NCBI GenBank assembly: GCA_051313645.2
Contig: JBNRSN020000004.1
Span: 300,948,001-301,012,000 of the forward strand
Reading direction: 5' to 3'
Length of the DNA stretch: 64,000 bases
Source of the DNA: Centroscyllium fabricii
Lineage: Eukaryota
Shown here: positions 41,701 to 64,000 of the stretch, one piece after another
Position numbering within the stretch: position 1 is the stretch's first letter
How the letters are laid out: the number at the start of each line of letters is the position of its first letter
The notes under the pieces: generated by a model
The model's database searches: none
What the model was told of the DNA's origin: nothing
Seen by the model: only the letters and a program-made list of their open reading frames with translations
Position numbers and translations under genes: made by a program

Positions 41701-42951
41701 CCCACCTCCTGGCACAAGTACGTCTTTGGTTTGGTCCATGGGCTCTCCCACCCGGGCATGCGAGCTTCTCAGAAGCTCATGTCTGCCAAATTTGTCTGGC
41801 CAGGCCTACATAAAGATGTGCGGAACTAGACTAACACCTGCCAGGACTGCCAACTCGCTAAGGTCCATCAGCACACTAAGGCTCCGCTGCAAATATTTCC
41901 GGTGCCCGAGCGATGGTTCGATCATGTTCATGTTGACTTGGTTGGCTCCTTGCCCCCATCACAGGGTTTCACCCATCTCCTTACCATAGTGGACCGCACT
42001 ACCAGGTGGCCGGAGGTCGTACCCCTTACTTCCACCACTTCGGCGGATGTGGCACGCGCTTTTATTTTTTCATGGGTGGCCTGGTTTGAGGTCCCGTCGG
42101 ACATGACCTCCGACAGGGGCCCACAGTTTACCTCCCAGCTGTGGAGCGAAATCACCACTGGCCTAGGGACGCAGCTGCACCGCACGACTGCTTATCATCC
42201 GCAGGCAAACGGTATTTGCGAGCGGTTCCACCGTGCCCTCAAGGCCTCACTTCGTGCCAGCCTGGTCGACGCCAACTGGTTGGACAGGCTCCCTTGGGTC
42301 CTTCTGGGATTGCTCGCCACCCCTAAGGACGACCTCGGCATGTCTTCCGCCGAACTCGTGTTTGGACAACCTTTGCGCATTCCAGGAGAGCTCCCCTCCG
42401 TCACCGAGAATTGGTCAGCCGGCAAGCAGCTCGCTTGGCACAACGACGCTGCACATCGTTTCCTTCCTGTGCCCACCTCTCGGCAAGGGGCCCGCTCGTC
42501 CCATGTGCCCACTGAGCTCCGCCGGGCATAATTTGTTTTTGTGCGTCATGACGCCCATAGAACCCCTTTACAGGCACCTTATACAGGCCCTTTCAGGGTG
42601 CTAGAGGCCAGTGACAAGTCTTTTCTCCTCGCCGTTGGGGGCCAACAGGACTGCGTTTCCATTGACCGGCTTAAGCCGGCCCATTTGGACCCTGTTCCGC
42701 CTGAACAGGGTTCCCGGGTCATGCCTCAGGAGCGTTTCTTTGTCCCCGTCGTGCCCCCAGCGGATCCTGCGTTAATTAGACCCTCGTGTATGGCTCCACC
42801 TCCTTGCTCTCCGGTCTTGCCCCCGACTGCTGCGGAATATCCGCCCTCCAGTCCTGTTCACAGATCGCCGCTAGCGCCCCCTGCACCAGCGGGCTATCGC
42901 ACTCGCAGCGGTCGCCTCATCATGCCTCCTCGGAGGTTGACCCATCATGTC
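38752..42951 (+). mobile_element. Ty3/Gypsy element of CsRn1/Kabuki-like type; 5' LTR 38752-39037; 3' end displaced by the nested insertion
   Basis: LTR TGT...ACA with AATAAA; PBS TGGTGAC (tRNA-Trp-like); gag LPAFW..WFLQTEAQF and CHCC motif CYYH-X9-CRLPC; FLCDTGA; RT; RNase H; IN (TSDRGPQF, GPF). Confidence 0.85.
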
Positions 42952-42954
42952 TGA
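39100..42954 (+). pseudogene. gag-pol of the CsRn1-like element (several frameshifts and stops)
   Basis: ORFs 39166-39354, 39402-39827, 39523-40737, 40802-41128, 41065-41829, 41902-42531, 42541-42954. Confidence 0.85.
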
Positions 42955-43824
42955 CACGGTTCCCCAGGATATCTGGACCCACTTGAAGAGACCACATGGC
43001 AGGTAAGTGTTCTAAGTTGCACTTTACTTGAGAAGACAAGAGGAGGCTCAATAGCCACTGTTTACACGGTACATGAAAACACAAAGCAAAATAACAGAGA
43101 GACAATGCTCAAATTAAACATAGCACATAAGCCAAAAGTACTAACAAGCAGAAATGTGTCCATGAGTTCAAGACTAAGCACTGAGTGCTAGAGAGACCGG
43201 GTTTAAATACTTTAGACAACGAGATCTCGAATGAGGTTCAAGTGGTGACAGGTTTCTTTGGGAGGTGATGTATTCTGCTGCCACCTGTCTTCGGGGATGG
43301 CTCATGAAGGATGTCATGGGCCCTAATCCAGGACCGCTCCTCTGGACCATAACCCTCCCAGTCGACTAGGTATTGGAGGCTGCCTCTCACTCTGCGACAA
43401 TCCAGAAGCCGCCGCACTGTGTAGACAAGTTGCCCTTCGATCAACCTGGGTGGCGGAGGACAGCGAGAGGAGGGAGACAGGGGACAAGTATGAAAAGGCT
43501 TCAACAATGAGACATGAAAAGTGGGACAGACTCGCATTGACTTGGGCAATGTGAGTCTGTATGTTACCACATTGGTGCGTCGAGCCACCTTGAAAGGACT
43601 GATGAACCTGGGTGCCAGCTTCCGTGAGTCAACCCGCAGAGGAATGTCCTTGGTTGAGAGCCACACTCTCTGGCCGATGCGGTATGGCCTGATATGTCGT
43701 GGTTGCCTGTTAGCTGCTCACTGCTGTAGTCTGGAGCTCAGTGCTAGGGTGGCTCGGGCTATCCTCCACACTCTCTGGATGTTGCACTGCAACGGGGCCA
43801 CAATGTGCGAGCTTGGAAGGATAG

Positions 43825-44416
43825 TGTGAGCTATTGGGGCGGTCTGTGGTGGATGGGCGATATGTGGCCACTAGAGGGAGTCAAAGTCCCCATTTCTCTC
43901 TACCCAATTTAGGTAAATCCACCACACCTGAAGTTAATCTTTCCCTTTAGCTCAGCAGTTAAAAAGGGAGCTGGAACAGTCCTAATTCTCTCTTGATGGG
44001 AGGCTCTCTTTAGGGGAGAGTCTCCTAGTGGGAGGCGAGCCCCGAGGGGCTCTCGCCTCTGGTTGGAAGTCTCTTACAGGAGAGTTGGAAGCTTGTTGAG
44101 CCTGTTGACAGAGCCAGATTCCAGGACCTCCGCCAGCAGCTGTTCGATGACCAAAACCACCAAGGGAAGGCCTGAGGGCTGGAGTAGAGGGTAAAGTAAA
44201 CCTCGAGCTTATGACTTTGGGCGGATGTGTGTAAAGGACTGATTGATTTCAAACCTTGTGAGAAGACGAAGGACTCTGTAAGACGGGGGAATTGGGCCCC
44301 GATGTTTGAATAAACCACAGCCAAGGGCTGCTTTCAATAGACAAACGTGTGTTGTGCACATGTCCTCCGACCCCGCAACGTCATTCCCACTCTGACTCGA
44401 GAACGGGGTTGTCACA
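43825..44416 (+). mobile_element. Solo LTR inserted in the sushi-type element
   Basis: TGTGA...TCACA termini, AATAAA near 44309, flanks ATAG/ATGG; host frame PETI|LPSS rejoins on removal. Confidence 0.72.
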
Positions 44417-47098
44417 ATGGTCTCAGGGGGTCTGTCCGTCAGAGAGGAATCACACTGGCGAGAGAGAGCATCAGCCTTCTGATTCTTAGAACCAGGTCTG
44501 TAAGACAGTAAAGTCAAATCTACTAAAACATAGTGCCCACCTGGCTTGACGAGCATTCAGGCGCTTGGCTTCTCGGATGAACAGAAGATTTTTCTGGTCG
44601 GTCCAAATAACAAAGGGATGAACTGCACCTTCCAGCCAGTGTCTCCACTCTTCTAGTGCTAATTTAATAGCTAGGAGCTCCCGATTTGCTACATCATAAT
44701 TCATTTCAGCAGGGGAGAGTTTCTTAGAGAAAAAAGCACAGGGGTGCAGCCGTCCATCCTTCTGAGCGACCTGGGAAAAGATGGCCCCTACCCTTATAGC
44801 TGATGCATCTACCTCTACCACAAAGGGGCGATCAGTGTCTGGATGAACTAGGATGGGGGCAGAAGACAATTGTCTCTTGAGCTCATCAAAAGCCTTCTGA
44901 GCAGCAGCAGTCCATTTTATGTGCTCGGGAGAGCCTCGGGTAAGAGCAGTGAGAGGGGTTGCAATGGAGCTAAATTTCCTAATGAATTTCCGGTAGAAGC
45001 AAAACCCAAAAAGCGTTGTACCTGTTTCAGAGTGGTTGCTGTGGCCACGCCAGGACTGCCGTGACCTTCCCTTGGTCCATCTGAACTCCCGATGGTGTCA
45101 TGATATAACCCAGGAATTAAGTGCTGGAGGTGTGGAAATCACATTTCTCCAACTTAGAAGGTGTTCATTAAGTCTCTGGAGGACCATCCTGACATGTCGC
45201 ACGTGTTCTTCCTGGCTCTTAGAGAAGATAAGGATATCATCCAGGTACACAAAGACGAAGTGGTTAAGCATGTTCCTTAGCACATCATTAACAAAACTCT
45301 GAAACACAGCTGGGGCATTTGCTAGACCAAAGGGCATGACCAAGTGTTCATAATGACCACTAGAGGTGTTAAAAGCAGTCTTCCATTCATCCCCCTCCCT
45401 TATCCTGATCACATTGTAGGCATTGTGCAGGTCTAACTTTGTAAAAATGGTGGCCTTACGCACTGATTCCAGGACTGATGACACAAGTGGCAGAGGATAC
45501 CTGTTCTTGACTGTTACCTTGTTTAATCCTCGGTAATCGATGCAAGGACGTAGCCCACCATCCTTCTTTTCCAAAAAGAAGAAGCCAGCTCCAGCAGGGG
45601 AAGTGGACTGTCGAATGAAGCCATTCTTCAATGCATCCTGAATATACTCGTCCATAGCTGCAGATTCAGGAACCGAGAGAGAAAACAGTCTCCCTCTTGG
45701 GGGCATTGTCCCTGGAAGGAGGTTAATGGCACAGTCAGAAGGACGGTGAGGAGGTAGGACTGTGGCACGTATTTTATCAAAAACTTCAACCAAGTCATGG
45801 TATTCTTGGGGTAACTTAGATAGCAATTCGGAGGGCTCTTGAGAACTGACTGTGGTGCCCTGAGTGACAGTGGTGACCGTGGACACATTCAAGGTGTCGG
45901 CACAACAGGACTTGAGACAAGGGGGACTCCAGGCAAGGAGAGAAGCTGATACCCAGGAGAACTGGGGATTGTGTTGGGCTAGCCAAGCATAACCTAGGAT
46001 GAGGGGATTGACAAGGGACTCAAGTACATAAAAGGTTATATATTCCTTGTGGTTCTGTTCAGCAGTTAACAGCAACGGGGTAGTTTGGAATGAAATCTTG
46101 CCTGAGCCAACAGGGTGACCATCAATAGCTTGTACCTTTAATTTTGATTTGCATCTGATCAGGGGTATGGCTAAACATTTAGCTAAAAAAAATCCAGAAA
46201 ATTACCTGCCGCCCCAGAATCCACAAATGCCCCCAGGTGGTGACAATGTGCCCCCCAGGACAGAGATACAGGCAACAAGAGACATGAGTGCCGGTGTGGT
46301 CAGAAGAGTGCTCCAGTAGTCAAGGTCTTCCCATCCCTGGACGACTCTGCCCTTTTTCCCGAAAGCTCAGGGCAGTGAGAGCGGAAGTGGCCAGTCTTCC
46401 CACAGTAGAAGCACCTCCGCTCTTCCATCCTTTGGTCCCTCTCCTCACGGGAGAGTCTAGTGCGGCTCACCCGCATCGGTTCCTCACCTTGGACTGAGGA
46501 AGACCTTAATGGAGAGAGGTCTGGGGTTGAGGGAGGAAAGGCAGATTCTCTTGGCCTGGCCCGCTCCCTGCTCCTACCCCTTATACGGTTGTCCATTTGA
46601 ATGGAAAGGGTAATGAGCGACTCTAGGTCGTCTCCCCAGTCCCTGCACACCAGTTCATCTTTTACCCTCTCAGATAGTCCATGATGGAATGCAGCAATCA
46701 AGGACTCGGTGTTCCACTTGCTCTCCATTGCCAGAGTGCGGAATTCCAGAGCAAACTCAGCGACAGAGCGAGTTCCCTGGTGTAGATCGAACAGTTGTCT
46801 GGCTGCTGAACATTCTGTGACTGGGTGATCGAACACCTGTCTCATTTCTTGGCTGAACAATGTAAACTGTGCAATGTCAAGTGTCTGTAGCTCCCATCGA
46901 GTCAAGGCCCATGCAAGTGCCCTGCCCAACAGCAGTGAAATTACATAAGCCACCTTGGCACGATCAGTACTGAAGGAAGACGGTTGCAACTCAAACACAA
47001 GAGACCATTGGGTGAGAAAACATTTGCAAAGTCCTGGGTCTCCGTCATACCTGAGTGGCACTGGCATTTGGCGCTCTCGAGCTTGAGGAGGGGTAGAT

Positions 47099-47447
47099 CG
47101 GTTCAAATCCAGCCTCGGGTACTATCTGTGTGGAGTTTGCACATTCTCCCCGTGTCTGCGTGGGTTTCCTCCGGGTGCTCCGGTTTCCTCCCACAGTCCA
47201 AAGATGTGCGGGTTAGGTTGATTGGCCAGGATAAATTGACCCTTAGTGTTAGGGGGATTGAATATGTGGGGTTACGGGGATAGGGTGGGATATGTGTCGA
47301 TGGAGGCTCGATAGGGATCGAGGGATATGGCGAGAGGGCAGGGGCTGGATACTGGGTGTGGATGATCAGCCATGATCTCACTGAATGGCGGAGCAGGCTC
47401 GAAGGGCCGAACGGCCTACTCCTGCTCCTAGTTTCTATGTTCCTATG
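47099..47447 (+). mobile_element. 5'-truncated HE1-like V-SINE inside sushi gag
   Basis: Starts at B box gggttcaaatcc; near-identical to 15727-16075. Confidence 0.88.
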
Positions 47448-47611
47448 ATGAATCAGGTTGTGGGCGAGGCTGAAGCTGCTGCAAGGTATCCAGCACCTGG
47501 TGCACAGACTGTGAAAGTTGTTCCAGTAGCTGTTGGTGTTGTCCTAACATGGCTCCCTGACTTGAAACAGCTGATCGCAATTTCTGTGTCTCTTCTGGGT
47601 CCATGTTAATA

Positions 47612-47622
47612 GCTTAGTCTTG
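47612..47622 (-). promoter_or_regulatory. Self-priming PBS of the sushi-type element
   Basis: GCTTAGTCTTG is the perfect reverse complement of CAAGACTAAGC in the LTR (47836-47846); no TGG tRNA PBS present. Confidence 0.75.
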
Positions 47623-47972
47623 CTGACACGGTTCCCCAGGATATCTGGACCTACTTGAAGAGACCACACGGCAGGTAAGTGTTCTAAGTTGGACTTTACT
47701 CGAGAAAAGAGGAGGCTCAATAGCCACTGTTTACACGGTACATGAAAACACAAAGCAAAATAACAGAGACAATGATCAAACTAAACATAGCACATAAGCC
47801 AAAAGTACTAACAAGCAGAAGTGTGTCCATGAGTTCAAGACTAAGCACTGAGTGCTAGAGAGACAGGGTTTAAGTACTCTAGACAACAAGTCCCCGAATG
47901 AGGTTCAATCTTTTGATTGATCTTAATCTGTTTAACTGTAAATCAATAAAACTTTAAATGAAACTTAACAAA

Positions 47973-49504
47973 TCAAATTAAAATTTGGTTTGCCGGGGTG
48001 ACGATGCACTCCAGTCCCCGCGGCGCCCACCGGTCACGAAAAGCCTCAAGCGTACCGGCGGACACCGCGTGCTCCATCTCCAGGGCCACCCGGGCGCGAA
48101 CGTGGCCGCGAAAGAGAGGCAGGCAATCCGGCTGGACCACCCCCTCGACGGCCCGCTGCCTGGAACAATAAATGGATCTTTTGGCAAGTCCCAGGAGCAG
48201 ACCGACGAGGAGATCCTCCAACCTGCCCGCTCCCCTCCGCACCGGATGGCCGTAGATCAGGAGCGTGGGACTGAAGTGCAACCAAAACATGAGGAGCAGC
48301 CCCTTCAAATATTGATAGAGGGGCTGCAACCTCCCACATTCATAATAAACATGGAACACGGACTCCTCCAGGCCGCAGAAATGACAGGTGGCCTGGGAGT
48401 CCGTGAACCTACTTAAAACTTTGTTGCACGGGGCTACTCCGTGCAACACCCTCCAGGCCAAGTCCCCAATAGAACACGGGAAGACTCCCGTGTAGAGAGC
48501 CCCCCATTGGGGACCTCCACCTCCGCCGGATGGCAAAATGGCACGCCAGGGCGTGTCCGGACGGCAGGCGAAGATGACAAAGTGGAGAGTGTGCAGGAGC
48601 AGCCCGTACAGGAAACGCCTCCGTGCGGTGTCAAAAGGCACGGAGGGCATTTCACCGAGACGGCTCAAGTTGTGAGGCGCCGGTTCCCGAGAGGGGTTTC
48701 GGGGCCGGGCGCCGATGAGGAATTCCGTCCGAACGGGGGTCAGCTCGGACGGGAGCACCCCACTTCTTTGAGCCGCCTCAATTCGCATCGTGTAGCCAAG
48801 GCCCAACGCCACTTTCAGCGACTCGATGGCTTTGACCGCGAGCCGGACGTCACCATGACCCAGGCGCTGCGCCAGTTCCGCTGGCGCCATCCAGCCCGCT
48901 CCTCCGCCATCGAGCAGGTCCCTGACTATAGTCACCTTGCCAGGCACAGCTCTATTCTCCGCCAGCCACCCGAACCCTCGGTCGTGGAGGTGCGGATTCC
49001 TGAGCAGCGGCTCTCGCAGAAGAGCCGCCACTCCTGACGGGAGAGAGGTGCGCCTGGAGGCGACGCTGTTCCAAACCCAGAGCAGTTCCTGGTAAAAGAC
49101 AGGCAGCTCCCGAAGGCTGGCATGTGTACCACCCACTTTGACAAACAGGAGCTGCGTGTCGTAGTTCAGGCCGTGCAGCTGGCGGAAGAAATATGTCGCC
49201 AGCGCACACCATCTAGGAGGATCCTCGACGTACAGGTATCTCTGCAGCGTCTGAAGATGGAAAGTCGCCGCCTGGGTGCGGAGGCACACCAGCGCCTGAC
49301 CGCCCTCCCTAAGCGGGAGACACAGAACCGCGGCAGAGACCCAGTGCTTCCTTTTGTCCCAGAAGAAGTCGATGAGCTTCTTCTGTATCCTGGCGACAAA
49401 CGCAGGGGGAGGGATCAAAGTAACCAACCGGTACCACAACATGGCGGCCACCAGCTGGTTTATGACTAGCGCTCGACCCCTGTAGGACAACACTCGGAGC
49501 AGTC
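47973..49504 (-). CDS. Tx1 ORF2 C-terminal part (zf-RVT), separated by the nested LTR element
   Basis: LSYRGRALVIN, IDFFW, DLAWRVLHG, CHFCGLEESVFHVYYEC; open frame. Confidence 0.88.
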
Positions 49505-52500
49505 TGTAACCTTCAATTATGTCCACGGAGTCGTGTAGTAGATTTGAACAATCAGGCTTTTATTGACTACAGTAAGATTGCACACCAGCAAGCTGACTGT
49601 CCCCTAGAACGACATGGGGGATGGGGGCAGTCACTTATATACCTCCTCCAGCGGGGGAGGAGTCGTGGGCGGAGCCAGGTATGTTCCAGGTATCACAGTG
49701 GAATGCATTACAGGTATGGGTTACATGGTGATTAGCTATATACAGTGATATACATGTTTATCACATTCACCCCTTCTTTAAGAACGAAACTACAGCGGGG
49801 TGAAAAACTAACAATTACAAAGGTGATCGGAAAAAAATAATATTACAAACGCAGTTCTTATGATTACAAGTTTAATCTATCAGGCGGTTTCGTTGTCCGC
49901 GTTGATCTTCGCACCGCTGGTGGTGCCTGTGGTGTTCGTGGTCGTGGAGCGGCTGGTTGTGTCGGTTGCTCCATTGATGCCGGTCGACTAGTGGTGGTTG
50001 TTGAATTATTTCTGTGTGGCGGTGGTGCCCTTATTCTGACAGCAGGGGGCGCGTTCTCTCCTTCGTCCTCTGACTCTAGGGGGCGCACGCTGTGGATCTA
50101 AGCTTGGGGCGCGGTCATGCTGCTCGCAGGTGCCTTGTGAACATACTGGGGTACTGGGCCCATGTGTTGGGGCGGGTACTTCGGCTTCGGCGGCATGGGG
50201 CCTCTCGGGAGCTCGGGCTGCCTGGCGGGGCTGGGTTTTGGGACTCCTGCTGGGGCTAGGTCCTTTATGGACACGGTGTCCTCCCTCCCATCGGGGTACG
50301 CTATGTAAGCATACTGGGGATTGGCGTGCAGGAGGTGGACCCGTTCGACTAGGGGATCTGCCTTGTGTCCCCTCACATGCTTCCGAAGGAGGACCGGTCC
50401 CGGAGATAGTAGCCACGATGGTAGCGAGGTCCCGGAAGCCGACTTCCTAGGGAAGGCAAAAAGTCATTCGTGAGGGGTGGCATTGGTGGCAGTACACAGG
50501 AGGGACCGAATAGAGTGGAGTGCTTCAGGGAGAACGTCCTGCCATCGGGTGACTGGGAGGTCTTTAGACCGTAGGGCTAACTGGATGGCTTTCCAGACCG
50601 TGGCGTTCTCTCTCTCTACCTGTCCGTTCCCCCGGGGGTTGTAGCTGGTAGTCCTGCTAGTCGCGATGCCTTTCGCTAGCAGAAACTGACGCAGCTCGTC
50701 GCTCATAAAAGAGGCCCCCCGGTCACTATGGATATAGTTGGGGTACCCGAACAGGGAGAAGATGCTATTAAGGGCTTTGATGACGGTGGCGGAGGTCATG
50801 TCCTGGCAGGGAATAGCGAAGGGGAAGCGGGAGTACTCATCTATAACGTTAAGGAAGTACACATTCCTATTAGATGATGGAAGGGGCCCTTTAAAATCGA
50901 CACTGAGTCGTTCAAAGGGGCGAGTGGCCTTGATCAAGTGCGCCCGGTCTGGCCGGTAGAAGTGCGGCTTGCACTCCGCACAGACCTGGCAGTTGCTGGT
51001 CATGGTCTTGACCTCCTCGATGGAGTAGGGGAGGTTGCGGGACTTCACAAAGTGAACCAACCTGGTGACCCCCGGGTGGCAGAGGTCATTGTGAAGGGTT
51101 TGGAGACGGTCAGCCTGTGCGCTGGCACAGGTACCGCGGGATAGGGCATCTGGGGGTTCGTTAAATATCCCGGGCCGGTACAAGATATCATAATTGAACG
51201 CAGATAGTTCAATTCTCCACCTTAATATCTTGTCGTTCTTTATTTTACCCCGTTCCTTGTTGTTGAACATGAATGCGACTGATCGTTGGTCAGTCAACAG
51301 GGTAAAACGTTTGCCGGCCAGGTAGTGCTTCCAGTGCCGCACTGCTTCAACAATGGCCTGGGCCTCCTTTTCGACTGAGGAATGGCGGGTTTCGGGGCCT
51401 TGGAGAGTACGTGAAAAGAAGGCCACGGGTCTGCCCGCCTGGTTAAGGGTGGCGGCCAGGGCAAAGTCCGATGCATCGCTCTCTACCTGAAATGGGACGG
51501 ACTCATCCACAGCGTGCATCGTGGTTTTGGCAATGTCGTTTTTAATTCTGCAGAATGCCGAGTTGGCTTCTGCAGAAAGTGGGAAAGAGGTCGATTTAAG
51601 TAGTGGGCGAGCTTTGTCCGCATAATTGGGGACCCACTGGGCATAATAAGCAAAAAATCCCAAACACCGTTTAAGGGCTTTGGGGGAGTGGGGGAGGGGA
51701 AGCTCCATGAGGGGGCGCATGCGGTCCGGGTCTGGACCGATGACTCCATTCTCCACCACGCTGCCGAGGATGGCCAGGCGGGTGGTGCTAAACACACATT
51801 TCTCCTTATTATATGTTAGGTTCAGGGTTTTGGCCGTGTGGAGACATTTTTGGAGATTGGCGTTATGGTCCTGCTGATCATGGCCGCAGATGGTCACATT
51901 ATCAAGGTACGGGAATGTCGCTCGCAGCCCGTACCGATCAACCATTCGGTCCATCTCCCTCTGGAAGACCGAGACCCCGTTCGTGACGCCAAACGGAACC
52001 CTAAGGAAGTGGTAGAGGCGGCCGTCAGCCTCAAAGGCTGTATAAGGACGGTCCTCTGGGCGGATGGGAAGCTGGTGATAAGCCGATTTTAAATCAATTT
52101 TGGAGTACACTTTAAATTGGGCGATTTGGTTCACCATGTCCGCTATCCGGGGGAGGGGGTAGGCATCTAGTTGGGTGAACCGGTTTATGGTCTGGCTGTA
52201 ATCCACCACCATCCTATTCTTCTCTCCGGTTTTTACTACCACTACCTGTGCTCTCCAGGGGCTGTTGCTGGCCTCTATGACCCCCTCTTTTAGGAGGCGC
52301 TGCACCTCAGATTTTATAAATACCATGTCCCCAGCACTGTAGCGCCTACTTTTGGTGGCGACGGGCTTACAGTCTGGGGTGAGGTTGGCAAAGAGAGATG
52401 GAGGGGCAACCTTAAGGGTCGAGAGGCCACAGGTAGTGTGCTGGGGGTACCGCCTTGAGCTGCGGTTTCTGACCGTGAGTGAGGGAAGGGGTCCGCCGAA

Positions 52501-54088
52501 TGCCATAGTAACGCTCTGAAGGTGGCACTGGAAGTCCAGTCCCAGGAGTAGGGGGGCGCAGAGCTGCGGCAGCACGTAAAAACTAAAATCATTAAACATT
52601 GCGCCCTGTACTTTAAGCGTTACAATACAGCGCCCGGTGACGTCAGCGGATTCTGACTTGGACGCCATAGATATTCTCTGGCGCGCAGGGATTACTTTAA
52701 GGGAGAGGCGCTTTACGGTATTTTGGTGAACAAAACTTACTGTGCTCCCACTGTCGAACAGGCACACCACCTCTTCACCGTTGACTTCCACCGGCATCAT
52801 CGATTTCTCCAGTGGTTGAATCTTCCTCTGGTCTAGGCTCATAGATGCTAGCACAGGGTCCTCCGAGTTATCTTGATCCGGAGAGTAGTCCTCCAAGTCT
52901 GCTCCCCAAGATGGCTGCCGCCATGTGTTGGGCTGTGGAGGCTGGGTCCAAGATGGCCGCTGTTGCTGCGGCTGCCACGAGGGCTGCTGAGTGGGGGATG
53001 GGTGAGCCCAATATGGCTGCTCCCCTGTTCCACACGCAGCGCTGCCCAGTTTAGATTTAAAGCTAGTGTTTTTACAGACCTTTGAATAATGTCCCTTTTT
53101 GTCGCATTTTGAGCAGGTCGCTTCTCTAGCTGGGCAGCTGCGTCTTGAGTGTTGAGGTTGTCCACAAAAGTAACATTTAGCTTTAGCGTGGGCAGCTGTG
53201 AGTAGTTCTTCTGCCGGTCGTTGCGCCAGCGCTGTCCAAGTTTGCGGGGCTGGGCCCGCATAATTACTTGAATATGATGATAAGTCCGTTGAAGCGCTAT
53301 CCAGCGCGTGCCCCAAGTCTGTGGTCGCCTGTAAGTCCTGGCCGTTCTGCTCCAGCAGTCTCTGCCTGGCATAGTCCGATTTTAGACCAGTTACATAGGC
53401 GTCCCTGATGAGGCTCTCCATATGAACTTGAGCCGTTTGCGCTCTGCAGTCACAGTCCCGTGCCAGCGTTCTGAGGGCTCTTAGGAACTGCACACTCGAT
53501 TCATTATTTTGTTGCTTTCTGGTAGCAAGTATATGTCTCGCGTGGACTATGTTCGGTGCCCGCTTATATTCCGCCTCGAGGAGCCTGATGGCCTCTTGGA
53601 ACGATGGGGCGTCCAGTGTCATCGAGTACACTTGAGGGCCCACCCGGGCGTTGAAGAGTCGCCGTTTTTGCTCCTCGGTCACTATGACCGCCGCGTTGGC
53701 TCTGATGTACCCTTCGAGCACGTTTCGCCAGTGCGAGAAGGCGTTTGCTGCTCCTGAAGATCGGGGATCAACTTCGAACACTGCTGGTTTAAGCATTGTG
53801 GTATCCATTTTCAGTAGTCAATAAAATTGTAACCTTCAATTACGTCCACGGAGTCGTGTAGTAGATTAGAACAATCAGGCTTTTATTGACTACAGTAAGA
53901 TTGCACACCAGCAAGCTGACTGTCCCCTAGAATGACATGGGGGATGGGGGCAGTCACTTATATACCTCCTCCAGCGGGGGAGGAGTCGTGGGCGGAGCCA
54001 GGTATGTTCCAGGTATCACAGTGGAATGCATTACAGGTATGGGTTACATGGTGATTAGCTATATACAGTGATATACATGTTTATCACA
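49505..54088 (-). mobile_element. Young Mag-like Gypsy element; 261-bp LTRs (49505-49765, 53828-54088); 5-bp TSD CAGTC
   Basis: LTRs differ at about 3 positions; empty site visible in Tx1 copy 2 (gagcagtcctgtcc, about 61323); PPT AAGAAGGGGTGAA. Confidence 0.95.
49864..53808 (-). CDS. Single gag-pol ORF (two CCHC knuckles, PR, RT, RNase H, IN) with two in-frame stops at 50464 and 50098
   Basis: The 1114-aa ORF continues in the same frame through ORFs 50098-50376 and 49864-50088; LFDSGS, YLDN, ESDAS, HSDRG. Confidence 0.92.
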
Positions 54089-56458
54089 CAGTCCTGTCCA
54101 GCGCCCCAGGCGAGCGGTGACTTTGGCCTCCAGCTCTTGCCAGTTCGCCGGCCAGGCTTCCTCGGCTGGGCTGAGGTAGACTCCCAAGTAGAGGAGGTGC
54201 GTGGTGCTCCAGGCGAATGGCCTGAACTCCTCCGGCAGGGAGTCCACCCGCCACTGACCCACCAGGAGTCCGGAACATTTCTCCCAGTTGATCCTGGCGG
54301 AGGATGCGTCCGAGTAAATCTGCTGGCATTCCCGCATCCTCCGCAGGTCAGCGGGATCCGTGACCATGAGGAGCACGTCATCGGCGTAAGCCGAGAGGAC
54401 GACCTCCACGCCCGGCCCTTGCAGAGCCAGTCCCGTCAACCTCTTCCGCAAGAGGCGCAGGAAAGGCTCCACGCAAACGGCATATAACTGACCGGACATG
54501 GGGCATCCCTGACGCACCCCCCTCCCAAAGCGAAGGGGCGCCATCAAAGACCCGTTAACTTTTATCAGACACTCTGCGGCAGCATACAAAAGTCGGATCC
54601 GGGCGACGAAATGCGTCCCGAACCCGAATGCGCGCAGAGTCCCGAAAAGGTACTCGTGATCCACCCTGTCGATCACCTTCTCCTGATCCAGGGAAAGGAA
54701 GGCGACCGACATACCAGCCCTCTGGGAATGGTGGAGCAGGTCCCGGACCAGATGGACGTTGTCGTGGATCGACCGGCCCGGGACCGTGTAGGACTGGTCG
54801 GGGTGGATCATGTGGGCCAGCACGGTGCCAAGGCGGACAGACATGGCCCTGGCAAAAATTTTGTAATCCGTGCTGAGGAGGGAGACCGGGCGCCAGTTTT
54901 TAAGGAGGTGGAGATCGCCCTTCTTTGGCAGCAGGACAATGACGGCCCTGCGCCAAGAGAGGGGCATCTCCCCGGTCGCCAGACTTTCCCCCAGGACCCG
55001 CTGGTAGTCGCCCCCCAAGACGTCCCAGAACGCCCTGTGGAACTCCACGGTCAGCCCGTCCAGCCCCGGGGACTTTCCCCTCGAGAGCTGGCCGAGGGCG
55101 CCGGTCAGCTCCGCCAGACTTAGCGGAGCGTCCAATTGTTCGGCGCCCTCCGGACTGACCTTCGGCAGGTCCTCCCACAAAATTCTACACGCATCCTCGC
55201 TGGACGGATCCGGAGAGAACAGAGCCCCGTAAAAGGACCGGGTCTCCGCGCTGATCCCCTCCGGATCCGAGACCAGAGATCCGTTGTCGGCCAGCAGCGC
55301 CAAAAGATGCTTACGGACCCCTCGCCTTTTTTCCAGCGAGTAGAAGAAGGGGGAGCCGCGGTCCAGATCCCGCAGGAACTGGATGCGCGACCTCACGAAC
55401 GCGCCTCGGGACCCGACGAGCTGCAGGTCCTTCAGCGTGCCCTTCTTTTCTTCGAACCCTGTCCGCAGGGCCGGGTCCCCGATGGCCTGACCGAGGCGGG
55501 ACTCCAGGTCGAGCACTTCCTTCTCCAATCGCCCGACCTGAGCCTTCCGCCCCTTGGTCGACCCCCTTGCGTACTCCTGACAGAAGAGACGGACGTGAGC
55601 CTTGCCCACGTCCCACCATAGCCTCAAGGAGGGGAAGCCCCCCTGCTTCCTTCTCCAGTCGGCCCAGAACCGACGGAACGAATCCCGGAATCGCGCGTCC
55701 TCCAGCAGCAGGTTGTTAAAATGCCAGTACGCGGATCCCCTCCGCGCGCGCAACGGAGCGAGCTCCGTCCACACCAGGTGGTGGTCCGTGCACGGCACCG
55801 GCCGCATGGAAGCCGCCCGAACGCAGGAGACGTACGCCCGAGAAATGTAGAGGCGGTCGATTCGGGAGCCTCCTCCTCCAGGCCTCACGTGAGTGAAGGC
55901 GCTCGAGTCGGGATGGAGATTCCGCCAGACGTCCACCAAGTCGAAGGACCCGACCAGGTTCCTCAACTTCTCTATCGCCGCCGGGCTGCGCGGGCGACCC
56001 GCACGGTCCCTCGCCTCGAGGGTACAATTGAAATCTCCCCCGAGGATGATGCACTCGTCGACGTCGACAGAGCCCAGAAGAGCGGACACTTCTTCAAAGA
56101 AGCGCACTTGCGCACCGATCTGAGGGGCGTACACGTTCACAAGATGGAGTGGCACGCCCCCGTGACGAACAGTGACCTGGAGCAAGCGGCCCGGCATGTG
56201 CTCCTTGACCCTCAAGATCTCCGGCTGAAAATGTGGGGCCAGCAAGATAGCCACCCCGCTGGAAATGTTGGAGAGGTGACTCATGTTGACCCCTCCTTGC
56301 CACTCCAGGAGCCACGTGGCGTCGTCTCCCGGAACGGTGTGGGTTTCTTGCAGGAAGCACACCGCATACTTCCCGTCCCGGAGGACCGATAAATTGTTAA
56401 ATCTACGGCGTGCCTCCCTGCTGCCGTTGATGTTGAGGCTCGCTATGGTTATCTTCAT
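54089..56458 (-). CDS. Tx1 ORF2 N-terminal part (APE endonuclease plus RT)
   Basis: SLNING, FLQETH, GGDFN, SRIDR, TDH, NWRPVSLL, GVRQGCP, YADD; open frame. Confidence 0.92.
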
Positions 56459-56483
56459 GTCAGCAGCACAGTGCTACCTACAC

Positions 56484-58652
56484 CTAACGGGGGGAAAGAG
56501 CGCAGTCCGTGGACAGACGCCACTCCTTCCGCAGCCCAGTGAGGAACTTCTTGAGCTGGCGCAGCTCGGGCTTTTTAACGCCCTTGTCCGCGGCCATGGC
56601 TTTAATGGCGGCGCGGACGGACAAAATGAGCGGCGCCAGCTCCAACCACCTGTCGAGGGCCAGACGGACCAGATTGTGGCGACCGAGGCGCGCGGCCTCA
56701 AAGTCCCGGAGCTCCGCCACGGGGATGAGGGGAGACTCGGCGATGGGCACGAGGTCGTCCATCGCCTCGTCGGCGACGGACTCCAGATCATCGTCCGCGC
56801 CCAGCTCTGAGTCCCCGTCCTCCTCCGGGAGGCCGCCACCGGCGGCCGATCCGCCAGCCGCGCAGGACGCGACTAACGGCTCGGCCACACCATCCGACCC
56901 TACCTCGGTCCCGATCCCACCCCCAGGATCGGTGGCAGAGGAGTCCTCCCTGGGCTCCACCAGGGGTGCCGGGCCAGAGGGAGGCGGCAGTTCGGGGCTC
57001 CCGTCCACCTCAGGCGCCGTAACGTACGGAGAGACGGGGAAGATGTCAAATACCATCTCCTCCAGTACGTCCGACGCCGATGTTAAGGGCGGAGTGAAGG
57101 AGCCGTCACCTTCCCCGCCACCAGCCACTGACCCAGCTTGTGGGGTATCCTGGTTAAAAACCTCGACCAGGTCGAACAGTCCCAGGGTACAATCGGGTTC
57201 ACTAGGGGCGAGGTCTATCTCTTCGACCTCGCCCACCCTTGACCCCAGGACGCCCGACCCGTCGAGGTCAGATTGTTCCCCTTGAGGGTTTTGGGGTTCT
57301 GGAGGTTGTTCCACGTCCCCCCCCACAGGCAGGGCCACATCCCCATCCCCGGGAGGTGTAAGGTCGCACGCCCCTTACAGAGGCACGGGCGGGACAGACT
57401 CAACCGCCCCACTCTCCTGCAAGACAGGCGACCCCCGCCCGTCATGAACGACGATGGCGATTTTGGGAGGGGGCGCGGCGCACGACGACTCCGCTCCCTC
57501 AGAGGGACCGTCCTCTTGATCACGGCCCCCCTCCTCACCCTGGGAGTCGGAGTCGTGCCTCCGTTTTATCCTGAGGGGACCCTGAGGGGGGGTGACCTCC
57601 ATATCATCCAAGGCCACCCCCTCCTCCGTTCCCCCCAGCTGAATGGGTGTTTCGGGCCCCTTGGATCCGAGCCCGGCCGCAGGTATTAACTTTTCTGTTG
57701 TGGCAGTGGCGGCCGCAGGCTCAGACTCGGGGCCCTCCCCGCTCCCACGTGGACCCACCAGACCCTGGATGTACTCTGGCATTGGGTCTGGCAGGTCCAG
57801 CAGTTGTGTGTCCCCTACGAGGGGACCCACCTTGCGGTTTTTGTTTTTATTTTTATTCCGCGCCTTCTTTCCGACCGGACGCGTTTCCTCCCACCCGCCG
57901 GAGGCCGTGATATCATTGGCCTCCGACGACACCCGCGCACCCGACACGCAAGACGCGCGGACAGACTCTGAGGGAGGAGCGGCGGCGGCGCCAGCTTCGG
58001 CCGCACTATTTGTTTTGGCGGCCTTGGAGGCGGGGCAGTTCCTCCTGATATGCCCCACCTCCTTACAGGCATGGCACCGCACGCCGTCCGTCGTCCAGAA
58101 GACGCGGTAGGCGGTCCCCTTGTACAGCACGGGGAATGCGCCGTCGGTGTCCTCCTCCCGCGCCAGCTGCATAAACAGCTGACGCCGGAAGGAGAAGACG
58201 TGGCGAAGGCTGGCCTCCCGGAACCCGAGCGGGATGGGCGTTATCTCCGACCTCACCTCCCCAAGTTGGCGTAGGTGGGGGAGGAGGAGCTCACCGGGAA
58301 TATAGGGTGGGATGTTGGAAAGTACGACCCTCTGCCCGGCGGCCTCTAGAGGGTCCACCGGCAGGAAGGTGCCACCCACGGTGAGCCCCTGTTCGACGGC
58401 CAGGGCCGCCGCCCGCTCGGAGTTCAAGAAGAACACAGCCTTCCCGTACATTTTAGAGGCCGCGACGATGGCTGAGGGGCCGACAACCCCAGCCATGGCC
58501 TTCACGCATGCCTCTATTGTCATGGTTGGGTGAGCGTAGCTCTTCACCCCCAGTTTCCTGGTTAGCAACCGGAATGGTGATGGGGCATCAGGGGCAGCCG
58601 TGGTCTTGGCAGTGGATGCCACGGCTGCGTAGGATTTTGATGTCCCCGCCAC
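56484..58652 (-). CDS. Tx1 ORF1 (RRM-like plus CCHC knuckle, long low-complexity tail), one in-frame stop at 57375
   Basis: KSYAAVA, ASKMYGKAVFFL, VVLSNIPPYI, CHACKEVGHIRRNC; ORFs 57375-58652 and 56484-57338 share a frame. Confidence 0.85.
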
Positions 58653-59654
58653 CGGCGAAGATATTGTCGCCCTGCTACCAGAGGGGGGGTTTTGGAGCCA
58701 CGCTCACCCCAAGTCACAGGCCTAAAGATGGTGAATGGCCTCAGGTAGGTTTTTGTCTTTTCCTCTTGAGCAGAGGGGGTGATTAGATAAAGACACACCC
58801 CTCCTCTTGATGACAGATGGGGGAGGGGCCTTCTCCCCTCTGCTCAATTGGCAATGAAAATGAAAGATGAAAAATGGTTAATGAGGTGCCTCTAGGGAGA
58901 GAGGCAGAGAAGGCAAAGAGAGAGAGAGAGGGGTGGTGGGAAGGAGGGAGACCACAAGGGTAGGGTCACCACTCAGGATGGATGGGTGGGTGGGTGTTGA
59001 CAGGCGGGGGTGCACTCTCTGATGGAAAAATACAAAGTCTGTTGATGTTGATGGTGGTCTTCTGGTGGGGGGAGAAGATGTCTTCACCTGGGATAGCTGG
59101 AGATGCCCAGGCTCAGTCCTCACCAGGTCTTTAACGATGTTTAATTGGTTGATGACTTCGCCTAGGCAGCTCCAGCCGTCCCAGGTCAGGCAATAGAAGG
59201 GGTGTTTTTAGTGGTGTGTGTGGCCTAGTTTTAACAAAAGCCACACACACAGACACACACCCCTTGATGGTCCGGCCTTCTGGTCTTCTTTTCTCCCCCC
59301 CACCTACAAATACAAAGTCTTTGGGAGAGTGCACCCAAAAACAACACCCACCTTCAGATGGTTATTCTCCCTCCTTCCGAAAAGTTGGTGGTGATGATTT
59401 TCTTCACCCCTCTCTTCCTCTCCCGAAATGGAGGCCAATCTGGGAGGCAGTGATGGGAAGGCCTCCCTGATGTTTTCTTGATGGATTCTTGGCCTCTCTT
59501 TCCTCTCCTCTGTCCTCTCTCCAGAAGCACCTCTGCAGCAGATGTTGTGGATGGTTGACTGATGGTGATGGTCACCCTACTGCTCTACTGCTCAAAAGAA
59601 ACAAACAAACAACACAACACCACAAAGAAGCACTCACAGCAGTAGAGTGGCCAG

Positions 59655-59731: not shown

Positions 59732-61872
59732 CTCTTTTGGTTGGTACTTGAACGGTTTATCTGTAAATTAGCAAAAGTTTAACTGAATCTTAACAAATTA
59801 AATTAAAATTTGGTTGGCCGGGGTGACGATGCACTCCAGTCCCCGCGGCGCCCACCGGTCGCGAAAAGCCTCAAGCGTACCGGCGGACACCGCGTGCTCC
59901 ATCTCCAGGGCCACCCGGGCGCGAACGTGGCCGCGAAAGAGAGGCAGTCAATCCGGCTGGACGACCCCCTCGACGGCCCGCTGCCTGGAACAATAAATGG
60001 ATCTTTTGGCAAGTCCCAGGAGCAGACCGACGAGGAGATCCTCCAACCTGCCCGCTCCCCTCCGCACCGGATGGCCGTAGATCAGGAGCGTGGGACTGAA
60101 GTGCAACCAAAACATGAGGAGCAGCCCCTTCAAATATTGATAGAGGGGCTGCAACCTCCCACATTCATAATAAACATGGAACACGGACTCCTCCAGGCCG
60201 CAGAAATGACAGGTGGCCTGGGAGTCCGTGAACCTACTTAAAACTTTGTTGCACGGGGCTACTCCATGCAACACCCTCCAGGCCAAGTCCCCAATAGAAC
60301 ACGGGAAGACTCCCGCGTAGAGAGCCCCCCCATTGGGGACCTCCACCTCCGCCGGATGGCAAAATGGCACGCCAGGGCGTGACCGGACGGCAGGCGAAGA
60401 TGACAAAGTGGAGAGTGTGCAGGAGCAGCCCGTACAGGAAACGCCTCCGTGCGGTGTCAAAAGGCACGGAGGGCATTTCACTGAGATGGCTCAAGTTGTG
60501 AGGCGCCGGTTCCCGAGAGGGGTTTCGGGGCCGGGCGCCGATGAGGAATTCCGTCCGAACGGGGGTCAGCTCGGACGGGAGCACCCCACTTCTTTGAGCC
60601 GCCTCAATTCTCATGGTGTAGCCAAGGCCCAACGCCACTTTCAGCGACTCGATGGCTTTGACCGCGAGCCAGACGTCACCATGACCCAGGCACTGCGCCA
60701 GTTCCGCTGGCGCCATCCAGCCCGCTCCTCCGCCATCGAGCAGGTCCCTGACTATAGTCACCTTGCCAGGCACAGCTCTGTTCTCCGCCAGCCACCCGAA
60801 CCCTCGGTCGTGGAGGTGCGGATTCCTGAGCAGCAGCTCTCGCAGAAGAGCCGCCACTCCTGACGGGAGAGAGGTGCGCCTGGAGGCGACGCTGTTCCAA
60901 ACCCAGAGCAGTTCCTGGTAAAAGACAGGCAGCTCCCGAAGGCTGGCACGTGTACCACCCACTTTGACAAACAGGAGCTGCGTGTCGTAGTTCAGGCCGT
61001 GCAGCTGGCGGAAGAAATACGTCGCCAGCGCACACCATCTAGGAGAATCCTCGACGTACAGGTATCTCTGCAGCGTCTGAAGACGGAAAGTCGCCGCCTG
61101 GGTGCGGAGGCACACCAGCGCCTGACCGCCCTCCCTAAGCGGGAGACAAAGAACTGCGGCAGAGACCCAGTGCTTCCTTTTGTCCCAGAAGAAGTCGATG
61201 AGCTTCTTCTGTATCCTGGCGACAAACGCAGGGGGAGGGATCAAAGTGACCAACCGGTACCACAACATGTCGGCCACCAGCTGGTTTATGACTAGCGCTC
61301 GACCCCTGTAGGACAACACTCAGAGCAGTCCTGTCCAGCGCCCTAGCCGAGCGGTGACTTTGTCCTCCAGCTCTTGCCAGTTCGCCGGCCAGGCTTCCTC
61401 GGCTGGGCTAAGGTAGACTCCCAAGTAGAGGAGGTGCGTTGTGCTCCAGGCGAAAGGCCTGAACTCCTCCGGCAGGGGGTCCACCCGCCACTGACCCACC
61501 AGGAGTCCGGAATATTTCTCCCAGTTGATCCTGGCGGAGGATGCGTCCGAGTAAATCTGCTGGCATTCCCGCATCCTCCGCAGGTCAGCGGGATCCGTGA
61601 CCATGAGGAGCACATCATCGGCGTAAGCCGAGAGGACGACCTCCACGCCCGGCCCTTGCAGAGCCAGTCCCGTCAACCTCTTCCGCAAGAGGCGCAGGAA
61701 AGGCTCCACGCAAATGGCATATAACTGACCGGACATGGGGCATCCCTGACGCACCCCCTCCCAAAGCGAAGGGGCGCCGTCAAAGACCCGTTAACTTTTA
61801 TCAGACACTCCGCGGCAGCGTACAAAATTCGGATCCGGGCGACGAAATGCGTCCCGAACCCGAATGCGCGCA
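59732..61872 (-). mobile_element. Tx1 copy 2 (3' part of ORF2), interrupted at 61873 by an LTR element
   Basis: High similarity to copy 1 ORF2 with small frameshifts; divergent 3' UTR. Confidence 0.92.
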
Positions 61873-62679
61873 TGTAACACAGTGTTTGGAGCAGTGCAGC
61901 AGGTGGGCTTTAGGACCCAACGGCATTTGTCCACCCCACTCGGCAACAATGTTGCAAACCTGGGGACATGGAGTGTTTGGCTGGAAGCTCCCAGCTGTTC
62001 AAATTCACGCGTATAGGTGCCAGTTGACAGTTGGTGGTTGGAATCTAAAAGAAAGAAGATCTCAGAGCCGAGGTGGTAGCTTCGCCCTCACTGCCATAGA
62101 TTTGATTGATAAAGAGCAGATCGCCACCGGGAAGAGGAGTGACACCGAAGAGTGAGCCACACCCGAGGTGGAGCAGATAAACGAAGAGAGAGAGAGAGAG
62201 AGAGACTTTTCTTTTCAGGCTCTTGATGCCCTCAGAATTGGTGCTTGACTGTTGAGGCGTCGAACCCCAGAGATAGAAAGGGAGGTGTGAGTACCGTGGG
62301 ACTGGGAGGGAATAGGGTCACTTGTTCAGTACCCCTTGCCAGTGGTTTCCAGGTATTTTTACCATGGCCATTGCCGTAAAGACTGTTTTGTCTAAGTCGC
62401 TATTCATAGCTCCTTAAAGGGAAATGTGTTTATCATTTTGTTAATACTGTAAATAGTTATCAAATCATCTCAACCTGTTGTAAATGTGAGTTATTTATCA
62501 CCAATTGTTTGATAAACTCTACAACCCTTTTCCCTACCTTGCTAAACTTGATTGATTACAGTACTGTTACATTTACCTATGGTGTTGTGTATTTCTTTCT
62601 GGGAAGGCAGCATTGAGTTAGACTTACTGGCGTAGACCACGATCTATTGCAAAATTCATTGAACCACGTAGGGGTTACA
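61873..62679 (+). repeat. 5' LTR of a Gypsy element with PNMA-like gag
   Basis: TGTAAC...GTTACA termini followed by tRNA-Pro-like PBS TGGGGGCTCGTTCCGGGAT (62683-62701). Confidence 0.85.
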
Positions 62680-62750
62680 TTTTGGGGGCTCGTTCCGGGA
62701 TATCGAGTGGTCTTTTGCCGGTGGGTCGGTCGTGTTGCCTGCTCAGAAAG

Positions 62751-64000
62751 ATGGATGCTGTGGAGGCTGCAGCGTGGTGCGAAGAGGCAAAGCTGGAGCC
62801 TCATCATGCCTTTTTGATATGTGGTGTTAATGAAGGAGACTCGGATGAGCTGGTACTAGGGGCTCTTAATGATGCTGACGAAGGGGAGGACTTTCAGATA
62901 GTTCAAAGTCAAGTGGACCCAAGTACCCAGACCCGAGTCATACTGGTTAAGACAGGGAGAGATGTGGAATACTTTCCTATGCCAGAAACGGTTGGGAGCG
63001 AAGGGAAAGCTGGTCCCTGGGTCGTTCAGCCCATTGTTAGAAAGAAAATAAAGAGAGAAGAAGATTTTGAAGCAAAATTGCTATGCTTCCTGGGGGGGGA
63101 AGGGAAAAGTGTTAAGGACCTTCAGGGACTATTTGAAACCCCAAGGGAAGATCCCAACCCTCACTTGGTCAGCGCGATAGGGTCGCTGGTTGAGAAGTGT
63201 GCTCAGGTGTCTTCTGAGGCACACGGATATAAGAAACTCCGTCCATTTTCGGGGGAAAGACCCACCCCTAGAGAGGAGGCGGAATATGAAGCCTGGGCAG
63301 AACAGACTTCGTCACTATTAGAAGAATGGCAGTGCAGTGACCAGATCAAGCGGCAAAGGATTGTGGAGAGTCTGAGAGGTCCTGCTACTGACATCCTGAG
63401 ATTTGAAAAAGTCCAAAATTCTTCAGCTACCTCGGCTGATTATATGAAGGCGTTAGAAACGGCTTTCGGAAACACAGAAACGAGTACAGATTTAATGGTC
63501 CGGCTTCGCAGCACTTTTCAAGGAGAGGGGGAAAAATTGTCCAGTTACATGCTGCGTATAGAGAAGCTGTTGCTCTGCCTGCTCCGTAAAAAGGGAATTG
63601 AAGTGGCAGAGCTAGATCGGTTTAGGATGGACCAGATTAGGCGAGGAGCACTGCTAGAAGATATAGTGGCTCTTCGTCTTAGGCTAATGTACAAGGTGTT
63701 GATCCCACCCTCTTTTACCGCATTGTTGAAAGAGGTCCGGGAGGAGGAGGATACATTACAGGCCCGAAGGGAAGTTAAGACTGTGGTGATGTCACAGCCA
63801 GTTGCTTCTTTGAGTGCCCAAGATCCTGAGAAGGAGAGGGATTCTGAGATGGCCGGCTTGAGGGCAGAGATGAAGGCTATGAGGGTCGAGATAGCCCAGG
63901 TCAGGAAGACACCGGGTTCGGCGAAGGGGGTCGACTCGGAAAGGAAGACCGAGGTGATGCCCAAGAAAGGGGAGAGACCGGGGGTCTTTTGCTATAACTG
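62751..64000 (+). CDS. PNMA-like Gypsy Gag, open to the window edge
   Basis: Manual translation MDAVEAAAWCEE...YKKLRPFSGERPTPREEAEYEAWAEQ...VESLRGPA...QGEGEKLSSY...GVFCYN (start of zinc knuckle). Confidence 0.85.
   Translation, partial: MDAVEAAAWCEEAKLEPHHAFLICGVNEGDSDELVLGALNDADEGEDFQIVQSQVDPSTQTRVILVKTGRDVEYFPMPETVGSEGKAGPWVVQPIVRKKIKREEDFEAKLLCFLGGEGKSVKDLQGLFETPREDPNPHLVSAIGSLVEKCAQVSSEAHGYKKLRPFSGERPTPREEAEYEAWAEQTSSLLEEWQCSDQIKRQRIVESLRGPATDILRFEKVQNSSATSADYMKALETAFGNTETSTDLMVRLRSTFQGEGEKLSSYMLRIEKLLLCLLRKKGIEVAELDRFRMDQIRRGALLEDIVALRLRLMYKVLIPPSFTALLKEVREEEDTLQARREVKTVVMSQPVASLSAQDPEKERDSEMAGLRAEMKAMRVEIAQVRKTPGSAKGVDSERKTEVMPKKGERPGVFCYN

Follow-up and report, generated by a model that had tools for sequence, protein, structure and literature searches.

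The DNA considered here is a 64,000-nt stretch of the Centroscyllium fabricii genome, hereafter the window (GCA_051313645.2, contig JBNRSN020000004.1, 300,948,001-301,012,000 of the forward strand), and all coordinates are those of the window. Its minus strand carries a 4.6-kb Ty3/gypsy retrotransposon, the parts of which are collected in Table 1. LTRs, a target site duplication (TSD), a polypurine tract and the domain order protease, RT, RNase H and integrase are all present, as befits Ty3/gypsy membership, and the top PDB match of the element's protein is the Ty3 Gag-Pol (E 5.5e-61). The gag-pol ATG lies 5 nt past the PBS, and in the window copy a stop codon at 50464-50466 breaks the end of the integrase. 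The insertion target was the RT open reading frame of a non-LTR retrotransposon (47911-49504 and 54089-58703, minus strand) that possesses an endonuclease-RT ORF and a zinc-knuckle ORF1 and is presumably of the Tx1/L1 type. A second, rearranged copy of this target lies nearby, as related pieces within 59736-61872, and a gag-like open frame on the plus strand (62622-63998), which we take to resemble the PNMA-type Gypsy gag, runs past the window end.

The two LTRs differ at 3 of 261 positions and the TSD is GACTG, in keeping with the young age originally ascribed to the element, and the family to which it belongs is young, with TSDs. The family is also large: there are 772 candidate copies, and a 21-nt LTR word is matched exactly 2,776 times (~2,800 LTRs), the latter figure coming from a pattern that returns ordinary LTRs and serving as a copy count alone. 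Copies of the wider lineage in the host genome number at least ten thousand.

Table 1. Parts of the Ty3/gypsy element and of its predicted priming region, in window coordinates
Feature	Position	Strand	Basis
5' LTR, 261 nt, TG...CA	53828..54088	-	sequence comparison of the LTR pair
3' LTR, 261 nt, 3 differences from the 5' LTR	49505..49765	-	LTR pair comparison
Target site duplication GACTG (5 bp)	upstream copy 54089..54093, downstream copy 49500-49504	-	sequence
TATA box TATATAA	53958..53964	-	sequence; kept in related subfamilies
Initiator-like TCATTCT; predicted transcription start is the A at 53933 (TATA+31)	53929..53935	-	predicted; aberrant-copy end points accumulate here
Predicted self-primer (5'-terminal 53 nt of the RNA: unpaired overhang of 40 nt, pairing arm of 13 nt)	53881..53933	-	inferred
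LTR arm pairing with the PBS, then GCC	53881..53893	-	sequence
AATAAA hexamer within the LTR arm; no other canonical hexamer follows the predicted start in this LTR	53882..53887	-	sequence; putative poly(A) signal
54-nt loop comprising U5, the remainder of R and a single spacer A; predicted imperfect hairpin that lengthens the stem	53827..53880	-	predicted fold
PBS complementary to the LTR arm, without a tRNA-type TGG	53814..53826	-	sequence
Single gag-pol ORF: two-zinc-knuckle gag, protease, RT (YLDN), RNase H, integrase core	50464..53808	-	ORF and domain matches
In-frame remainder of the integrase C-terminus, without a chromodomain match	50098..50463	-	ORF and Pfam
Polypurine tract preceding the 3' LTR	49766..49779	-	sequence

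Complementarity of the PBS and the LTR

Just inside the 5' LTR there is no TGG-type PBS, as had been observed originally. On the element strand the LTR ends in CA and is followed by one unpaired A (53827) and then by the PBS, TTTTATTGACTAC (53826-53814), and the LTR arm reads GTAGTCAATAAAA (53893-53881). In window orientation, GTAGTCAATAAAA (53814-53826) is thus the exact reverse complement of TTTTATTGACTAC (53881-53893) over 13 nt, which bears out the complementarity with the AATAAA-containing LTR segment on which the original prediction was built. Of 20,000 dinucleotide-shuffled versions of the LTR, a single one contained a perfect complement of at least 13 nt to the 25 nt that follow the LTR, and the 13 stem pairs had predicted pair probabilities of 0.8-1.0 in four folded RNA segments. 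Both arms are kept in all 30 near-identical copies that were fetched, the window copy included. Decay of the PBS, previously judged unlikely, is ruled out as the cause of the missing tRNA site by the identity of the site in these young copies.

The alignment of relatives proposed as a check for covariation revealed matched changes in the PBS position and the LTR arm throughout the lineage. In two further families of the host genome, found with a distant gag query, 23 of 30 copies carry a perfect 11-18 bp stem of different sequence, ATTAAA pairing with TTTAAT among these variants. Metagenome searches yielded 80 loci, 39 of them with a match reaching the gag start, and 27 of these could be scored, the other 12 lacking either the gag motif used (nine) or sufficient upstream DNA (three). 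A perfect stem of 11-19 bp, reached by at most one of 100 shuffles, is present in 25 of the 27, the exceptions being L180, with 9 perfect pairs only, and L130, with no stem. The PBS begins one base past the LTR end, and is never TGG, in each of 22 non-redundant families, and in 18 of them the arm gives way to GCC or ACC. Beyond a shared A tract, 6.9 of 7 positions pair when PBS and arm come from the same family and 3.75 when partners are swapped, the former value being biased upward by the location of each arm through maximised pairing; a swapped arm pairs perfectly in 4 of 462 combinations. One family (L148) was mis-anchored in this scoring, and separate inspection shows 14 pairs.

Covariation extends to close relatives, as near-identical families (L152 and L153, L120 and L121) differ by matched changes. 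Among host contigs, the sole variable sites within the two arms are 53819 and 53888, which are partners and occur in three matched states, C-G, G-C and T-A; the T-A state marks 9,602 junctions and is concordant in 100 of 100 of the matches listed. Changes matched in this way could not be tracked by a tRNA or tRNA fragment. Judged by sequence comparison, the pairing is common to the whole lineage, whose closest named proteins come from sharks and rays and which has further relatives in Trichuris (a nematode), Actinostola (a sea anemone) and Ischnura (a damselfly). A HMMER search of representatives returned 6,299 gag relatives, all without names, the ESM Atlas returned just unnamed or generic gag clusters, and two viral_contigs pattern scans contained no relatives among their 17 and 44 matches.

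In some subfamilies the gag leader (53806-53813, minus strand) is partly complementary to the predicted first bases of the RNA, and a capped RNA would have to be translated through a hairpin whose stem ends only 5 nt before the gag ATG.

End points of inverted copies

From the TATA box at 53964 and the initiator-like TCATTCT, transcription had been predicted to start at 53933, which places the arm 40 nt downstream, before aberrant copies were sought. If a 5' fragment of the RNA is the primer, faulty products should be found in which an inverted stretch of the LTR follows the PBS and ends at +1. Across three groups of subfamilies, junction patterns recovered 72 loci (24, 27 and 21), from which 19 with an extension of less than 20 nt were left out, leaving 53 inverted extensions. 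Fifteen of these end at -1 to +2 of the predicted start, 22 at +3 to +32, three at -2 to -100 and 13 farther upstream; two of the three stops just upstream are script stops that local alignment carries to the LTR start. The stop rate at the start is 15 in 94 nt, versus 22 in 1464 nt inside and 3 in 1423 nt upstream (approximate P 5e-10 and 2e-16). Without five doubtful events (four that rejoin the gag leader at 4-6 nt of microhomology and a possible duplicate), the counts become 10 stops in 83 nt versus 22 in 1,304 and 3 in 1,423 (approximate P 8e-6 and 4e-11). In most short events of this set the sequence then continues at a site within the element, the outcome that an erroneous second strand transfer would be expected to give.

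A second set was collected with the prediction fixed beforehand that other subfamilies should stop at their own TATA+31. It drew on 96 of 173 matches (73 were not among the matches listed and four tandem copies were skipped) from a search that ran outside the T- and A-preceded subfamilies, and 42 of the 96 were left out, 40 of them as ordinary leaders of another subfamily, to give 51 unique events. Among the matches listed, 18 of these end at -1 to +2, 21 at +3 to +30, seven at -2 to -100 (three at -2) and five beyond, so that the two sets together contain 33 of 104 events stopping at -1 to +2. The copied length, again among the matches listed, is 50-53 nt in short-overhang subfamilies versus 60-61 nt in the long-overhang subfamily (2 events), and the arm starts 37-48 nt past the footprint boundary. 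Smaller, secondary peaks occur at +11 in the first set (5 of 53) and, among the matches listed, at +13/+14 in the second (7 of 51).

These peaks count against the primer reading, as do several boundary events that rejoin at microhomologies. Microhomology at the acceptor in the 18 boundary events of the second set is 4-8 nt in about six (L282, L305, L319 and L325, probably L328 and L354), 3 nt or less in eleven, and one event has no known acceptor; in the first set, 4 of the 15 at the gag leader, together with L235, have 4-8 nt. One structure is an LTR trimer inside one 5-bp TSD (L338/L339; G000:C689, about 98875900-98876900), in which the PBS, a primer-length inverted copy of 50 nt and a single T join each unit to the next; the inverted copy stops at the initiator A, without microhomology. 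A DNA hairpin (CCCC/GGGG) was considered as the cause of the stop at +1 and rejected, as +1 sits in the loop of that hairpin and not at its base. Elsewhere, a mini-insertion with a TSD (L077) consists of an LTR, the PBS, a 43-nt inverted copy and the last 13 nt of U5.

Other families behave differently or are sparsely represented. Family B, a further point against the primer reading, has no pile-up, one of 30 examined events (from 38 matches) ending within 60 nt and most reaching the LTR start, a pattern that would fit a transcription start flush with its stem, as its initiator-like CCAGTTC suggests; with such a start, fold-back products would be all that is seen. Family C contributed 4 events only. 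Family B also includes structures of ~400 bp at unrelated sites (L090, L094, L098, L103, L106, L108 and L114; oriented loci around 1340-1740) that all begin at one internal TG (LTR position ~129), proceed through the PBS and run inverted back to LTR position 1; they may represent an inverted, non-autonomous mini-element or a fold-back product that recurs. Logan contigs of four runs, none on record as RNA, contained no joints, starts or ends.

Probable self-priming and its alternatives

Minus-strand DNA synthesis is, with good probability, primed by the 5' ~53 nt of the element's own RNA. The RNA would start near 53933 (TATA+31), and its bases +41 to +53 would pair with the PBS across the 54-nt loop. 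A cut within the stem or at its end, near the conserved AAA^(A/G)CC junction, would then free a 3'-OH and yield a primer of up to 53 nt; by analogy with Tf1, the element's own RNase H may make this cut. Any cut in the stem yields the same junction, and the exact cut position is therefore not readable from DNA. From the freed end, RT would copy U5 and the remaining R and then jump to the 3' end, with the first strand transfer presumably using the short R stretch between the cut and the poly(A) site. Plus-strand synthesis would later proceed through the retained RNA primer as far as its 5' end, and the short inverted copies would result when strand transfer or integration then goes wrong; the longer ones would form if that end pairs back onto the LTR of the same plus strand. 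With AAUAAA or AUUAAA in the arm, concealment of the 5' poly(A) signal by the stem may be an additional advantage. One suggestion of the original prediction had been a different tRNA-independent mode of priming. Its tRNA-independence is upheld by the covariation and by aberrant copies in which the complement of the RNA 5' end follows the PBS, but the mode is not wholly different, since the primer would still be 5' RNA as in Tf1, only longer and with the pairing segment at its 3' end.

Priming by a host tRNA or tRNA fragment, with the LTR match incidental, has in its favour that most Gypsy elements use tRNAs as primers. The accessible portion of one study further reports that Mag-lineage elements of Culex use tRNA-Leu, -Ser or -Arg (PMC3286476). 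Against such a primer stand the lack of TGG in 22 of 22 families and a site that changes in step with the LTR arm, even between near-identical families; in addition, ARAGORN found no tRNA gene in the window and Rfam no match over 53700-54150. The covariation appears to refute this explanation largely, and it can be considered very improbable. A primer taken instead from the 3' copy of R, at the 3' end of the same or a second RNA and cut near AAUAAA, with no priming role for the 5' arm, is also unlikely. The same arm is indeed present in the 3' LTR, and in two events (L069 and L206) the inverted copy extends past the LTR start into the polypurine tract, as such a primer would allow. Copying would, however, be predicted to continue into U3 without a stop at the initiator, whereas the 33 stops at -1 to +2 (the second set being among the matches listed) have few counterparts just upstream, and an additional switch onto the RNA 5' end would be needed to explain them.

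The remaining alternative assigns the stem to the hiding of the 5' poly(A) signal, with priming by some host RNA or protein and the aberrant copies arising as plus-strand DNA fold-backs at the inverted repeat. There is precedent for such occlusion in retroviral poly(A) hairpins, for example that of HIV-1, in which, as here, AAUAAA is sequestered in a duplex that only the 5' LTR can form; the differences are that the partner strand here is the PBS and that the hexamer is not conserved across the lineage. A canonical hexamer (AATAAA or ATTAAA) overlaps the arm end in 12 of the 22 families (13 with L148 corrected), several of the non-canonical hexamers found there in the others (GTTAAA, TTTAAA, GATAAA, ATGAAA or ACAAAT) are weak variants of the poly(A) signal, and fold-back accounts for the long extensions into U3 that dominate in family B. 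Yet the stem is retained without a canonical hexamer in 10 of 22 families (9 with L148 corrected), and in three of these (L120, L122 and L138) the canonical hexamer is unpaired in the loop. The PBS always lies one base past the LTR end, the position that a primer must occupy, a host RNA would need to change with each family, and a DNA fold-back has no reason to stop at TATA+31. This explanation is thus improbable as a whole, and the masking hairpin that the original prediction had entertained does not survive as the main role of the stem. Across the 22 families the constant feature is an A tract that is base-paired where the primer would sit, and for this reason masking would be at most a second use. 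A search for polyadenylated retrocopies that might place the poly(A) site gave 0 matches.

Known self-priming systems and the affinities of the lineage

Self-priming is usually presented as characteristic of Tf1-type chromoviruses. In the accessible text of PMC7175516, the primer of Tf1 is the first 11 bases of its RNA, cut free by RNase H, and the available parts of PMC4600332 and PMC6317226 propose self-priming for Tj1, the Tf1/sushi/Tcn1 group and TAR copia elements; about half of Tf1 cDNA retains PBS sequence at its 3' end, according to the portion available of PMC11042837. The present element resembles Tf1/Tf2 of S. pombe, Tj1 of S. japonicus and the Tf1/sushi/Tcn1 chromoviruses in its probable independence of a tRNA and in possessing a PBS complementary to its own 5' RNA. 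It differs from Tf1 in that its arm starts ~40 nt inside the predicted RNA and not at the first 10-13 bases, in its predicted primer of 50-61 nt with an unpaired overhang and predicted loop of only about 30-80 nt, and in an A-tract end that is often a poly(A) hexamer; unlike the Tf1/sushi chromoviruses, it lacks a chromodomain and belongs to a separate RT clade. The TAR lineage of plant Ty1/copia (Houba, Osr-1) is similar in that self-priming was predicted from PBS-LTR complementarity outside chromoviruses, but it belongs to the Copia superfamily, in plants, and in the accessible part of PMC6317226 the proposal is a prediction only. As in self-primed elements, the PBS is not of the tRNA-3'-end type and is complementary to the element's own RNA, with covariation, and the inverted copies point indirectly to a 5' RNA fragment as the primer. 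On these sequence criteria the element would work like Tf1, yet is outside that group.

The classic Tf1 layout is found in the window itself, in a second Gypsy element at about 42950-47910 on the minus strand. Its 11-nt arm (47846-47836), 30 nt past a TATA-like box, is complementary to a PBS at 47622-47612 across a 213-nt loop, and its integrase end (43238-43717) has what we take to be a chromodomain-like motif.

In the full-text literature, with older subscription papers and repeat databases outside the scope, self-priming was found only for Tf1/sushi/Tcn1, Tj1 and TAR copia elements, and nothing was found on the PBS of the present lineage. What is newly added is which RNA best fits the role of primer and how long that primer is, with exact predictions of a start at 53933 and a primer of up to 53 nt. 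Self-priming would here occur in a separate lineage spanning sharks, rays, a nematode, a sea anemone and a damselfly, which bears on whether hairpin priming is ancestral or has arisen repeatedly. Annotation is also affected, as such elements look PBS-less, and the footprints allow retroelement primers and transcription starts to be mapped from assemblies alone. A fuller reading joins these points: a large animal-wide Gypsy lineage outside chromoviruses would have evolved self-priming independently, with a YxDN RT, a capped primer of 50-60 nt cut at a conserved AAA^RCC, an arm that doubles as a 5' poly(A) switch, a primer sequence written into the next PBS such that the arms change in step, and a primer mappable from fossilised copies. 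Taken as a whole it is put forward tentatively, as a real possibility that falls somewhat short of being probable.

The original description of the element as Mag-like holds for the gag only. Two CCHC knuckles are evident in the sequence of the gag of P0001, and a double zinc knuckle is a Mag trait; short LTRs and a compact single ORF are further likenesses to the Mag lineage. The RT, however, forms its own clade and is 30% identical to that of L239 in the host genome, which we take to be a Mag-type RT, versus at least 47% within the clade, and the PBS is not tRNA-complementary, a difference from the tRNA PBSs given for Culex Mag elements in the accessible portion of PMC3286476. Mag membership thus appears unsupported. 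An RT tree places 36 relatives together, separated by a 100/100 branch from six other Gypsy RTs that include the window's chromovirus, although the tree is unrooted, with few, long-branched outgroups and no named references, and an independent origin of self-priming is not readable from it. Pfam searches for a chromodomain in P0001, the post-stop remainder of the integrase, P0002 and P0008 gave no match. The anatomy would fit that of Cigr-1 from Ciona intestinalis, which we take to have a length of about 4.1 kb, 245-bp LTRs, one ORF, a Mag-like gag and a non-Mag RT. A clade named for Cigr-1 is reported in a survey of molluscs, whose supplement places Cigr-1 under 'Mag' (PMC6238403); the accessible portions of PMC6238403, PMC8556966, PMC2774666 and PMC3601003 hold no information on the Cigr-1 PBS.

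The RT domain of the element (51739-52368, minus strand) has YLDN instead of YxDD as its active-site motif. A literature search on the YLDN/YxDN motif found no paper. Among 120 related proteins, 96 have YxDN and 22 YxDD, the motif not being found in two, and the lineage with the YxDN RT is actively transposing.
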